Positions 36,485-39,599 of a stretch of DNA of 64,000 bases are shown here, in pieces (position 1 is the stretch's first letter; every line of letters starts with the position of its first letter). The notes below the pieces were generated by a model. That model saw nothing but the letters and a program-made list of their open reading frames with translations. It had not been told where the DNA came from and searched no databases. Made by a program: the position numbers and the translations under genes. This DNA comes from a virus (Duplodnaviria > Caudoviricetes). Location of the stretch: the IMG/VR virus record IMGVR_UViG_3300011559_000001, positions 224,001 through 288,000 of that record, one strand, 5' to 3'.

Positions 36485-36931
36485 ATGGGCAAGAACAACC
36501 GACACAGAACCGGGCCGAACAAGCCGATTTGGGACGTCCTTCTGGGGCTGTCTCGATCCGTTGGCCAAGTCACCAATGTCACGGCGATGCTGATTCCGTA
36601 TCTGCAAGACCGTGAACTGCTGAGTCGTCTCAAAGACCCAGCAGCGTTCAACCGTTTGGGCTCACGATTGGATAGCGACATTCGCAATCTGACCTTGCGC
36701 TTCAACATCATCGCGAAACAGCACGAAGGCCGTCAGGGGCAAACTGCTGATCCGACTGAGTGGATGCGGGCCATCGACATCCAAGAGCAGTACATCGCTT
36801 GGGCATCTGACTTCGACGACATCGCCATTCCGACCTTCACGGAAATGATGGAGATGCTGCGCGCCGCTGGCGCAAAGAACATCGTCCAGATGCAGTCGGC
36901 CACCGCACTCGCACAGCAGCACTCACCCTGA
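36485..36931 (+). CDS. Hypothetical helical protein
   Basis: 148-aa ORF upstream of the gp77-like gene. Confidence 0.65.
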   Translation: MGKNNRHRTGPNKPIWDVLLGLSRSVGQVTNVTAMLIPYLQDRELLSRLKDPAAFNRLGSRLDSDIRNLTLRFNIIAKQHEGRQGQTADPTEWMRAIDIQEQYIAWASDFDDIAIPTFTEMMEMLRAAGAKNIVQMQSATALAQQHSP

Positions 36932-36945
36932 CCTGGAATGCTCCA

Positions 36946-38658
36946 ATGAGTAACGAAAACAACCCGCCGGCCTCGGTGGGCATGGACGTCGAAGAGGACG
37001 TCGTCACCTCCATCCAGACCCCGGCCGAAGCCGCCTATGCTGCCGACGCTTCGGGTGAGCCCGTATCGGTAGCGGACGCTCCGGTGGTGCCGACCGTTGC
37101 CAATGTGCAGGTCGCCGCCGAGACCGTCCTGGAAAACCCCGCCGACGCAGACGTCGGCCTGCCCGCAGACAGCGAAGCTGCTGCCGAGGAAGACGAGCCG
37201 CTGCTGGCCGTGTTCCTGCGTCAGGGCATCAACCAGCTCGCCGAGCTGATGCAGGATCCCAGCACTGCGCTGGATTCGCGCAAGACCTTCGCAGATAGCG
37301 AACGCCTGTTCATCGTGCCGTGCACGTCGCAGGAATTCAACAACCTGGTGCTCAACGTGCGTCGCCTGGATCCCACTGGCTCGGCCGTGGGTCGTGCCTG
37401 GACCAATGCCATCGGCCAAGGCCAGCCGCACATGCCGCGTGCTGACATCGGCCTGAACGCTCTGACCCGTGAAGTCTCGCTGTGGCGCCAGAAGGTGCAG
37501 GCCGAAGGTCCGGGCAGCGTGGAAATCGGTGCCGGTCGTCCGGGCCTGGGTGAACGCAAAGGCAATGCCCCACTGGTGGGCGAAGAAGCCCTGCAGTACA
37601 TGCAGACCATGATGGGTACCGGCCAGCTCTCGCGTATCCCGCTGTGGCACTCGGGCATCTGGATCAACATCAAGGCGCCGACCGAACAGCAGCTGCTGGA
37701 ACTGGAACGTCGCATCGCCAACGAGAAGATCACCCTGGGTCGTGCGACCGCCGGCCTGGCGTACTCGAACATGTCGGTGTACCACAACGCCTTCCTGTTC
37801 AACTTCGTCCTGTCGCTGGTGTTCGACTGCTCGATCTCCGGCTTCACCGTGGACAAGCTCAAGCAGAAGATCCTGCTGCCGGACCTGCCGCTGCTGCTGT
37901 GGGGCCTGCTGTGCACGATCTACCCCAACGGCTACCGCTACCACCGTCCGTGCATCGCCGATCCGTCGGTGTGCCAGCACGTGACCGAAGAGCTGCTGGA
38001 CATCTCCAAGCTGTGCTGGACCGACAACCTGGCCCTGACGCAGTCCCAGCGCAACCACATGGTGCGCAAGACCGCCAAGTTCACCGACATCGAGCTGGAC
38101 AACTACGTGTCCCAGCACCGCTACAACGGCAAGGGTACGGTCAAGGTCAAGGAAGTGGGCGGCAACACCACCGCGGTGGAACTGCGCGTTCCCTCACTGG
38201 CCGACTACGAGCAGTCCGGCTACTCGTGGGTGGAAGGTATCGTGTCCACCACCGATCAGGCCTTCGGCTCCCAGCTGGGCGGCGATGAGCGCGATGAGTA
38301 CATCCTGGATCAGGCACGCTCCACCAGCCTGCGCCAGTATGCGCATTGGCTCAAGCGCATCACCTTCAACGGCACGCACTCCATCGACGATCGCACCACG
38401 CTGGAGACGATGATCGCCCAGCTGACTGGCGACATCGAGGCGTCGGACAACTTCATGGATGGCGTGAGCCAGTTCATCAACGACAGCACCATCTCGTTGA
38501 TCGCACTGCCCTCCTACAAGTGCCCGAACTGCCAGGCCGATCAGAAGAACCCGGAAGAGGCCAAGCATCCGCACCTCATCCCGCTGGACATCGGGGCGAT
38601 TTTTTTTACCCTTCTCGGCCAGCGCACGCGCCGATTGCTGGATTCAGCGGTCATCTGA
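36946..38658 (+). CDS. Core protein (phiKZ gp77-like); candidate tail/baseplate assembly chaperone, short form
   Basis: IPLWHSGIWI, IYPNGY..C..C, C-terminal CPNC and IPLD..FFTL; slippery T8 run near the end. Confidence 0.65.
   Translation: MSNENNPPASVGMDVEEDVVTSIQTPAEAAYAADASGEPVSVADAPVVPTVANVQVAAETVLENPADADVGLPADSEAAAEEDEPLLAVFLRQGINQLAELMQDPSTALDSRKTFADSERLFIVPCTSQEFNNLVLNVRRLDPTGSAVGRAWTNAIGQGQPHMPRADIGLNALTREVSLWRQKVQAEGPGSVEIGAGRPGLGERKGNAPLVGEEALQYMQTMMGTGQLSRIPLWHSGIWINIKAPTEQQLLELERRIANEKITLGRATAGLAYSNMSVYHNAFLFNFVLSLVFDCSISGFTVDKLKQKILLPDLPLLLWGLLCTIYPNGYRYHRPCIADPSVCQHVTEELLDISKLCWTDNLALTQSQRNHMVRKTAKFTDIELDNYVSQHRYNGKGTVKVKEVGGNTTAVELRVPSLADYEQSGYSWVEGIVSTTDQAFGSQLGGDERDEYILDQARSTSLRQYAHWLKRITFNGTHSIDDRTTLETMIAQLTGDIEASDNFMDGVSQFINDSTISLIALPSYKCPNCQADQKNPEEAKHPHLIPLDIGAIFFTLLGQRTRRLLDSAVI
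38601..38634 (+). other. Candidate -1 programmed ribosomal frameshift site
   Basis: In-frame T TTT TTT heptamer (38601-38607), 7-nt spacer, TCGGC/GCCGA stem; -1 frame open to 39116. Confidence 0.6.
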
Positions 38659-39116
38659 TCAACCAAGAAGACGTGGAAGGGCATGTGCTCTTCCCCGGCT
38701 TCGGACAGGCCGCCGCCCAAGAGCTGTCTCCGGTCAAGCAATTGGCCGAGGCAGTGCGGCTGTCGTCTAAGAAGAGCTTGACCAGCATCGAAACGCAATT
38801 GATGTTGCGTGAGCTCTACGATCAGAACTTTGGTATCTCCCAGCACAACGATCCGCATCGACCACTGTCCATCGTGGCCATGCAGACCAAAGAAACGCTG
38901 GGTCCGTATTCAAGGACTTACCGACTGTACCACCGGTTTGCGTCACTGAACGTAGGGGATCTGTTCAAGATCTCGATCAATGACTTCCTTAACCAGCCTC
39001 GTGAGCTTGTCGAGATGATGTTCACCATCGCCGAACACCGAGCGCAGGCGAAGGGTCAAGAGGATGGCAACACGCTTCGCAACATCGAAAAGCAGTTGCA
39101 GCAAGAACTGAAGTAA
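38601..39116 (+). CDS. -1 frame extension (GT-like) of the gp77-like gene, or separate gene from GTG 38673
   Basis: Frame open across the slippery site; C-terminal LFKISINDFLNQPRELVEMMF resembles tail-chaperone C-terminal parts. Confidence 0.6.
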   Translation, partial: FFYPSRPAHAPIAGFSGHLINQEDVEGHVLFPGFGQAAAQELSPVKQLAEAVRLSSKKSLTSIETQLMLRELYDQNFGISQHNDPHRPLSIVAMQTKETLGPYSRTYRLYHRFASLNVGDLFKISINDFLNQPRELVEMMFTIAEHRAQAKGQEDGNTLRNIEKQLQQELK

Positions 39117-39140: not shown

Positions 39141-39599
39141 ATGATTCAGTACGAAGGGGCAGGTAACTTGTTTGCTTGTCACATGCAGACGATCATTTGC
39201 AGTATCAACACCGTTGGTGCAATGGGCAAAGGCATTGCGTTGTCGTTCAAGAACTACGTTCCTGGATTGTACGATTACTATCGCCAGCATTATCGGGACA
39301 AAGAGCCGCACTACCCGAGCGTGAACAAGCTTGAGATCTACACGGTGGACGAGGCCCGCAAGGTCTTGCTGTTTCCCACCAAGGACCATTTCAAGTACCC
39401 ATCCAAACTGTGGATGATTGAGCAGAACCTTCGCCAGCTGGCACAGCGCTACGATGAGCTGGGGATTACCTCTCTGGGCTTGCCGTTGATTGGGTGTGGC
39501 TTTAACACCGGCCAGCTCAATTGGGAAACGCAGGTGCGTCCGATGGTCTATGACTATCTGGATCCCCTGCCGCTTCCCGTGAAGATCCTCACCGGTTGA
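39141..39599 (+). CDS. Macrodomain (DarG-like ADP-ribosyl glycohydrolase)
   Basis: GNLF, INTVGAMGKGIALSFK, FPTK, PLIGCG..GQLNW motifs; AGGAG RBS. Confidence 0.85.
   Translation: MIQYEGAGNLFACHMQTIICSINTVGAMGKGIALSFKNYVPGLYDYYRQHYRDKEPHYPSVNKLEIYTVDEARKVLLFPTKDHFKYPSKLWMIEQNLRQLAQRYDELGITSLGLPLIGCGFNTGQLNWETQVRPMVYDYLDPLPLPVKILTG

Follow-up and report, generated by a model that had tools for sequence, protein, structure and literature searches.

A probable −1 frameshift joining the phiKZ gp77 homologue to the following reading frame in nucleus-forming jumbo phages

The window analysed here is a 64,000-nucleotide (nt) stretch of phage DNA, positions 224,001 to 288,000 of the 310,882-bp IMG/VR virus record IMGVR_UViG_3300011559_000001, whose closest named relatives are the Xanthomonas phages RTH11 and LucasX. 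It carries a homologue of phiKZ gp77 (open reading frame 1, ORF1) and, downstream of it, a coding region in the −1 frame (ORF2, or the extension). A tblastn search with ORF1 gave matches in 184 phage records, all of them phiKZ-like jumbo phages and PHIKZ077 among them; the gene is the Chimalliviridae core gene cg18, still labelled 'hypothetical protein'. A preliminary description, made from the sequence of the window, had proposed that a programmed −1 shift at two adjacent Phe codons (FF) joins the gp77-like ORF to the next one. The layout of 105 of the 105 loci that we compared supports this proposal.

At the junction the ORF1 frame reads GGG GCG ATT TTT TTT ACC CTT CTC GGC, where ATT begins at 38599 and ATT TTT TTT ACC encodes I552, F553, F554 and T555. 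The TGA stop (38656-38658) lies 16 codons past F554, and the 570 codons of ORF1 give a protein of 570 amino acids (aa). A TAA at 39114-39116 closes the −1 frame, which has no other stop from 38298 on. Slipping on the heptamer T TTT TTT would therefore join 554 residues of ORF1 to 169 residues of the extension, resulting in a 723-aa trans-frame product with the junction ...GAIFF/YPSRPAH. The preliminary description had placed the heptamer, about 16 codons before the stop, correctly to the base, and its end of the −1 frame (39116) and its product sizes of 570 and about 723 aa agree with ours. It had also stated that the gp77-like ORF uses mostly TTC for Phe; outside the slip site we counted 14 TTC codons and no TTT, and T occupies 11% of third positions. 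By count, runs of seven or more T are within chance in the window, which is 59% GC (three matches versus 2.05 expected); the significance of this run comes from codon choice and conservation, not from the window count alone. The features of the locus are collected in Table 1.

Table 1. Features around the gp77/extension junction (positions in the window)
Feature	Position	Strand	Basis
gp78-like ORF, 148 aa, same operon	36485..36931	+	phrog_14050
ORF1, phiKZ gp77 homologue, core gene cg18, 570 aa, 0-frame product	36946..38658	+	phrog_4585, E 1e-114; tblastn; AlphaFold2 (AF2) model, predicted local distance difference test (pLDDT) 85
Span of the four invariant Cys: C336 (37951-37953), C343 (37972-37974), C526 (38521-38523), C529 (38530-38532)	37951..38532	+	invariant alignment columns
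T8 run; heptamer T TTT TTT 38601-38607, P-site TTT 38602-38604, A-site TTT 38605-38607	38600..38607	+	
0-frame tail, 16 codons and stop; end of a predicted helix (residues 549-569) that would be swapped out in the shifted product	38608..38658	+	
−1 extension, 169 codons and stop, beginning YPSRPAH	38607..39116	+	phrog_12109; AF2 model, pLDDT 80
First conserved extension motif, GHVLFPGFG; F and G nearly invariant in the family	38679..38705	+	
In-frame GTG 38673 and GTG 38685, possible independent starts, this clade only	38673..38687	+	
Local hairpin TCGGC (38615-38619)/GCCGA (38630-38634), 7-nt spacer after the heptamer; not conserved	38615..38634	+	

The 105 loci comprise the window, 24 named phages picked across the whole tblastn ranking (including phiKZ, PhiPA3, 201phi2-1, Goslar and RAY) and 80 IMG/VR loci found with an alignment of ORF1; a search for related loci with the single ORF1 protein found none. 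Clustering at 90%, 50% and 40% identity leaves 92, 57 and 23 groups, respectively; at this divergence, the layout is no single accident handed down by descent. ORF2 lies in the −1 frame in the window and in all 24 named phages (25/25), and this frame is open back beyond the T run at the same Phe-Phe codons. Measured from the run, the −1 frame spans 151-186 codons in every one of the 105 loci (median 168), whereas the median for the +1 frame is 13; in about 40 loci the −1 frame starts being open merely 0-5 codons upstream of the run. The 0-frame tail past the slip site is 8-37 codons long across the loci, and in the window the first 17 codons of the extension overlap it.

The heptamer is T TTT TTT in 66 loci, T TTT TTC in 23, G TTT TTT in six, T TTT TTG, G GTT TTT and A CTT TTT in three each, and G TTT TTC in one; 92 of the 105 have the canonical X XXY YYZ form. 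In all 54 representative lineages the Phe codon in the P site is TTT, with a joint probability of ~1e-34 under each gene's own usage. Some lineages otherwise have only TTC in ORF1 (TTT:TTC is 0:18 in RSL2 and 0:14 in Xoo-sp14), yet use TTT at this position. The wobble base of the codon before FF is T in 49 of 57 lineages (~1e-30), with a variable amino acid (I, T, L, V, A, G, Y or N). An alignment of the junctions across Chimalliviridae, suggested by the preliminary description as a check, thus returned the −1 layout and a T-rich site at the FF codons at every locus. From this comparison, a recoding event fusing gp77 to the next ORF is very likely.

Two overlapping frames could also be produced by a homopolymer sequencing error, or by a frameshift mutation that has split a decaying gene. 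Errors or indels do happen at the run: the RTH11 record (OQ790161.1, 3681-3687) has T7, one T fewer than the window and LucasX, and its annotated 627-aa ORF1 is thus out of the conserved frame at the run and continues as nonsense until a late stop. The shorter run probably reflects either a homopolymer sequencing error or an indel that arose recently at this site. However, the same two-frame layout is present in 105 independently assembled and widely diverged genomes, with both frames conserved as protein and no in-frame version: we found no in-frame ORF1-ORF2 fusion among 98 ORF1 homologues (485-627 aa, the longest being the RTH11 protein misframed through its T7 run), nor among the best 150 of 1,613 ORF2 clusters. 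The comparative data effectively refute an artefact, to which we attach a negligible probability, and the homopolymer error that the preliminary description had itself raised falls with it.

Without recoding, ORF2 would be an ordinary gene translated from GTG 38673 or GTG 38685, possibly through coupling to the termination of ORF1 translation, with the T run being no more than Phe-Phe codons. In line with this, both GTG codons are in frame past the ORF1 stop in the window's clade, a separate coding sequence (CDS) is annotated in LucasX (starting at the second GTG) and in most records, and RTH11 has GAGGAGG 5 nt before its GTG, the only good Shine-Dalgarno (SD) sequence in this clade. In the window a weak purine tract, GGAAGGG, lies ahead at poor spacing, and neither GTG has a well-spaced SD. 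The preliminary description's 'no clear ATG plus RBS' (ribosome-binding site) therefore holds as regards the SD but was slightly overstated, given the two in-frame GTG codons.

Across the family, however, an ordinary start is hard to place. The extension opens with a poorly conserved linker, followed by the GHVLFPGFG motif and then by a second motif (...LYD..FGI..H). In 38 of 58 lineages there is no in-frame ATG, GTG or TTG from the slip site to the FG motif, and a start with an SD in this interval is found in just 2 of 58. The FG motif lies within the ORF1 overlap in Moabite, RSL2, Wellington, JM-2012, STsAS and CR5, and in phiKZ the annotated ATG of gp76.4 comes only after ~70 conserved codons. 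A profile search with the extension returned 1,613 clusters (50% identity) from 1.84 billion representatives; the 150 best matches range from 105 to 191 aa and their called N-termini fall anywhere at profile positions 1-58, a scatter that fits gene callers having grabbed the first available start and not the true N-terminus. Ordinary initiation also leaves unexplained the −1 phase in 105/105 loci and the choice of TTT against codon bias. We consider it very unlikely as an alternative to recoding; independent initiation may nevertheless occur alongside the shift in the window's clade. The layout, the slip site and the absence of an independent start are, on the sequences compared, conserved throughout Chimalliviridae.

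The segment CCCTTCTC (38609-38616), right after the heptamer, is able to pair with GGAAGGG (38676-38682) before GTG 38685, in this clade only. RTH11 has a stronger version of this long-range pairing (CCCTTCTCG with CGAGGAGGG), and one of the other loci (L026) has it as well. It may mask the SD-like tract until ORF1 has been translated, and it might couple an extra, independent initiation to ORF1 translation in the window's clade only; such coupling would favour an ordinary gene.

In the expression model that we propose, most ribosomes would read ATT TTT TTT ACC in frame and stop 16 codons on, producing the 570-aa protein. A minority would slip backwards by one base on T TTT TTT, with the tRNA-Phe in both the A site and the P site re-pairing on TTT, and would translate 169 further codons in the −1 frame to give the 723-aa protein. 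The long form would have residues 1-554 in common with the short one, would lose the last turns of the C-terminal helix and would gain a disordered linker and a helical domain with a long final helix, possibly a coiled coil. The plain and C-terminally extended forms of a non-virion hub- or tail-assembly factor would be made at a fixed ratio.

The AF2 model of the extension (pLDDT 80) is helical, with a C-terminal helix of ~37 residues. Pfam gave no match for 41 ORF2 members, and a search of BFVD with ORF2 returned its own family only. A comparison using VIA recovered just generic long-helix and coiled-coil/zipper folds (Z at most 5.6), the ESM Atlas yielded nothing informative for ORF2, and hhalign gave no match to T4 gp51 or gp28.

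The AF2 model of ORF1 (pLDDT 85; predicted template modelling score 0.83) is disordered over residues 1-80. Searched against solved structures, it had no Foldseek match at E <= 0.001 and a best Z of 4.7 in a wide VIA comparison, and the ORF1 profile matched no solved chain among the PDB sequences. In BFVD, whose entries are predicted and not solved structures, Foldseek returned the gp77 family first and then ~20 T4-like proteins of ~250 aa (E 6.5e-6 to 3.5e-2; probability >= 0.9; template modelling score ~0.45-0.58 when normalised to the target). These are named 'baseplate hub assembly protein, T4-like', 'baseplate hub subunit' or 'hub assembly chaperone'. Amongst 64 ORF1 relatives, two match PF12322 (T4_baseplate; E 0.001) and five match phrog_150, 'baseplate hub' (2e-5), and one GenBank record names a gp77-family gene 'baseplate hub'. 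T4 gp26 and gp51 both belong to PF12322 and are listed as hub assembly chaperones (PMC3004832).

The likeness extends to individual residues. Aligned by hhalign, the C-terminal ...P.yKCPxC...H..I....FFtLL of gp77 pairs with the very end of gp26. The invariant C336, C343, C526 and C529 of ORF1 correspond to C82, C84, C187 and C190 of T4 gp26, and F553/F554 to F204/F205; an early Cys pair, a late CxxC and a C-terminal CPxC...FFxLL are thus shared in addition to the fold-level match. The four Cys form a probable Zn site. T4 gp26 ends three residues past FF, so that the jumbo-phage slip site lies exactly at the end of the gp26-like module. ORF1 differs in being more than twice as long as gp26 (208 aa) or gp51 (249 aa), and in T4 gene 26 FF is encoded by TTC TTT, three codons from the end of the gene. 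T4 gene 26 likewise yields two products (26 and 26'), but the second arises by internal initiation and not by recoding. Non-virion status, a further likeness to gp26/gp51, is plausible for ORF1; in keeping with it, ORF1 matches no solved chain, and the text of the Goslar virion cryo-electron microscopy preprint mentions neither gp81 nor gp82 of that phage. We put at slightly better than even the chance that ORF1 belongs with the T4 gp26/gp51 hub-assembly chaperones as an enlarged, Zn-binding relative, and infer from this remote similarity that the gp77 pair consists of two isoforms of a hub- or tail-assembly factor.

As a whole explanation, one recoded gene that is expressed through a ribosomal −1 slip and has a hub-chaperone-like function seems to us probable. 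Several observations weigh against it. The 723-aa product is a prediction from comparison. Non-canonical heptamers (G TTT TTY, G GTT TTT and A CTT TTT) are present at 13 of the 105 loci, and the FF motif is conserved as protein too, which means that the run's phase does not count as independent evidence. On the side of function, the gene has as neighbours an RNA polymerase (RNAP) beta subunit, a gp79-like head protein, the gp78-like ORF, a macro-domain protein and a helicase; it sits amid RNA-polymerase and helicase genes, not tail genes. The window ORF1 itself has no PF12322 match and the scores against the PF12322 hidden Markov model (HMM) stay below the curated cut-off of 24.5 bits, whilst hhalign of the ORF1 and PF12322 families reaches a probability of only 8-9%. 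Searches of the window's own genome with PF12322 and phrog_150 gave no match, although the controls were silent too. The preliminary description's hint at T4 gp26/gp51 is borne out in part, by the BFVD fold matches and by the few relatives touching PF12322 or phrog_150. Finally, we found no conserved downstream stem-loop: the minimum free energy (MFE) of the 75 nt downstream has a mean z of −0.74 over 58 lineages.

Our scans for stimulators covered MFE folding, alifold and simple hairpins. The best hairpin 3-10 nt past the heptamer averages no better than hairpins at control positions in the same genes (−7.7 versus −7.6 kcal/mol, p = 0.85), and an anchored alifold was empty. The stem TCGGC/GCCGA of the preliminary description is present where it was placed, behind its 7-nt spacer, and is part of the MFE structure of the window (z −1.6). 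As a conserved stimulator it is not supported, being absent in RTH11 and LucasX and without a family-wide excess of hairpins.

The lack of a conserved ribosomal stimulator is one of the points in favour of transcriptional slippage, the main rival on mechanism, in which an RNA polymerase (phage or host) adds one U in the T run and the same 723-aa protein results. Most runs are also long (T7 in 55 loci, T8 in 28 and T9 in four), transcription of the gene probably falls to the phage's unusual multisubunit RNAP, and there is a weak hairpin just 5' of the run in the window. This hairpin (TCCCG...CGGGG followed by the T8 run, 38579-38607) lies inside ORF1, appears terminator-like in a consensus scan and is missing from RTH11; it might help the polymerase to pause or slip. 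However, 18 loci have merely T5-T6, which is too short for efficient slippage by known polymerases, and what stays constant is not the length of the run but the codon-phased pattern X XXY YYZ; one of its forms, G GTT TTT, is a motif on which ribosomes are known to slip. Slippage by the polymerase is in our judgement unlikely. We infer a ribosomal shift, which given recoding is quite probable, and likewise its efficiency.

Ribosomal −1 shifts that yield two isoforms have well-known precedents. In Escherichia coli dnaX (tau/gamma) and T7 gene 10A/10B, −1 frameshifts fix the ratio of two isoforms. At dnaX the slip occurs on A AAA AAG, with an SD-like element upstream and a stem-loop downstream, and the shifted product is the shorter one. 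The gp77 junction resembles both in its heptanucleotide −1 slip leading to two C-terminally different isoforms, and differs in that our scans detected no dnaX-like stimulators. Closer in context are the tail assembly chaperones (TACs). Xu and colleagues are said to have described in 2004 a conserved −1 frameshift in the TACs of long-tailed phages (lambda G/GT), and the P2 tail chaperone E/E+E' has a T-rich heptamer. With lambda G/GT and P2 E/E+E' the gp77 pair would share a heptamer −1 shift shortly before the 3' end of a morphogenesis gene, a common N-terminal part with a C-terminally extended long form, conservation throughout the group, and products unreported in the virion.

These parallels raise the question of whether the pair is itself a G/GT-type chaperone of tape-measure and tail-tube assembly in phiKZ-like phages, as the preliminary description had proposed. 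The expression logic is the same, with a −1 shift near the 3' end and a short and a long product, which is an analogy of expression and not homology; the absence of the Goslar proteins from the text of the virion preprint also fits, as does the 201phi2-1 record, in which gp138 carries a mass-spectrometry mark and gp136/gp135 carry none. TAC structures do appear amongst the weak VIA rows: YqbN (3klu; Z 4.7, root-mean-square deviation 6.6, 98 aligned) and HK97 (2ob9; Z 3.4) align to residues 108-335 of the ORF1 model and are in the top 26 of 48,161 chains, with both Z values under the tool's stated noise level. Against this reading, neither ORF1, ORF2 nor their relatives have a Pfam TAC match, and there is no sequence or convincing fold relation to the lambda and P2 proteins. 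At 570 aa and with its four-Cys site, ORF1 is four times the size of gpG (the lambda and P2 proteins being about 100-150 aa), the gene is not between or next to the tail tube and tape-measure genes, and the gp26/gp51-like hub proteins are clearer structural relatives. Membership in the G/GT family, which the preliminary description had favoured, we therefore regard as quite improbable.

A functional rather than a familial correspondence is a somewhat less doubtful, though still unlikely, idea. In it the nucleus-forming jumbo phages would have in the gp77/extension pair their long-missing equivalent of G/GT: the part resembling gp26/gp51 would hold a hub or tape-measure complex, the added helical domain would oligomerise or recruit tube or initiator subunits, and the rate of slipping would fix the stoichiometry at which tails are initiated. 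If true, it would unite the T4 gp26/gp51 chaperones and G/GT recoding in one evolutionary scheme.

Upstream of the gp77 homologue, each named phage that we read carries an annotated gp78-like ORF; a search of the ESM Atlas with the gp78-like ORF gave no usable match. The gene after the extension (39141-39599, + strand) encodes a macro-domain protein (PF01661, E 4e-6; phrog_335), and Goslar has the same neighbour (gp83). BFVD also contains weak structural matches to both ORF1 and the extension that come from the same non-model phages and have neighbouring accessions: A0A1B4XWT4/A0A1B4XWS3 from Tenacibaculum phage pT24, and A0A8S5P0M5/A0A8S5NZW6 from Myoviridae sp. ctLnO19. On these predicted models, the gp77/extension pair may reach past the recognised Chimalliviridae.

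Current annotation splits the pair. A joined CDS is annotated in none of the 24 public phage records, and the downstream partner is treated inconsistently: in RAY, Wellington and 201phi2-1 its start is placed within ORF1, whilst phiKZ gp76.4, at 80 aa, is only the C-terminal half of the conserved extension and the preceding 218-nt 'intergenic' gap codes in the −1 frame. The extension is not in the published list of core genes (10.1101/2023.02.24.529968), yet it is present in all 105 loci. We found no description of the gp77 frameshift in public annotation or in the open-access literature on phiKZ-like phages, subscription literature being outside the search; neither the PRFect paper nor the core-genome paper mentions it, nor does the 2025 Annual Review.

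The phiKZ-like phages are intensively studied today, and gp77/cg18 is still 'hypothetical'. To our knowledge, the strategy of making two isoforms by a −1 slip is so far unreported in the gp26/gp51-like gene family. If ORF1 and ORF2 are one recoded gene, annotation would be corrected in every genome of the family and a universally conserved coding region would be added to the core set. A predicted protein of ~80 kDa, invisible to proteomic searches against current databases, would come into view. The comparison with T4 would offer the gene a concrete role in baseplate-hub or tail assembly, and would extend the two-isoform strategy to the gp26/gp51-like family.

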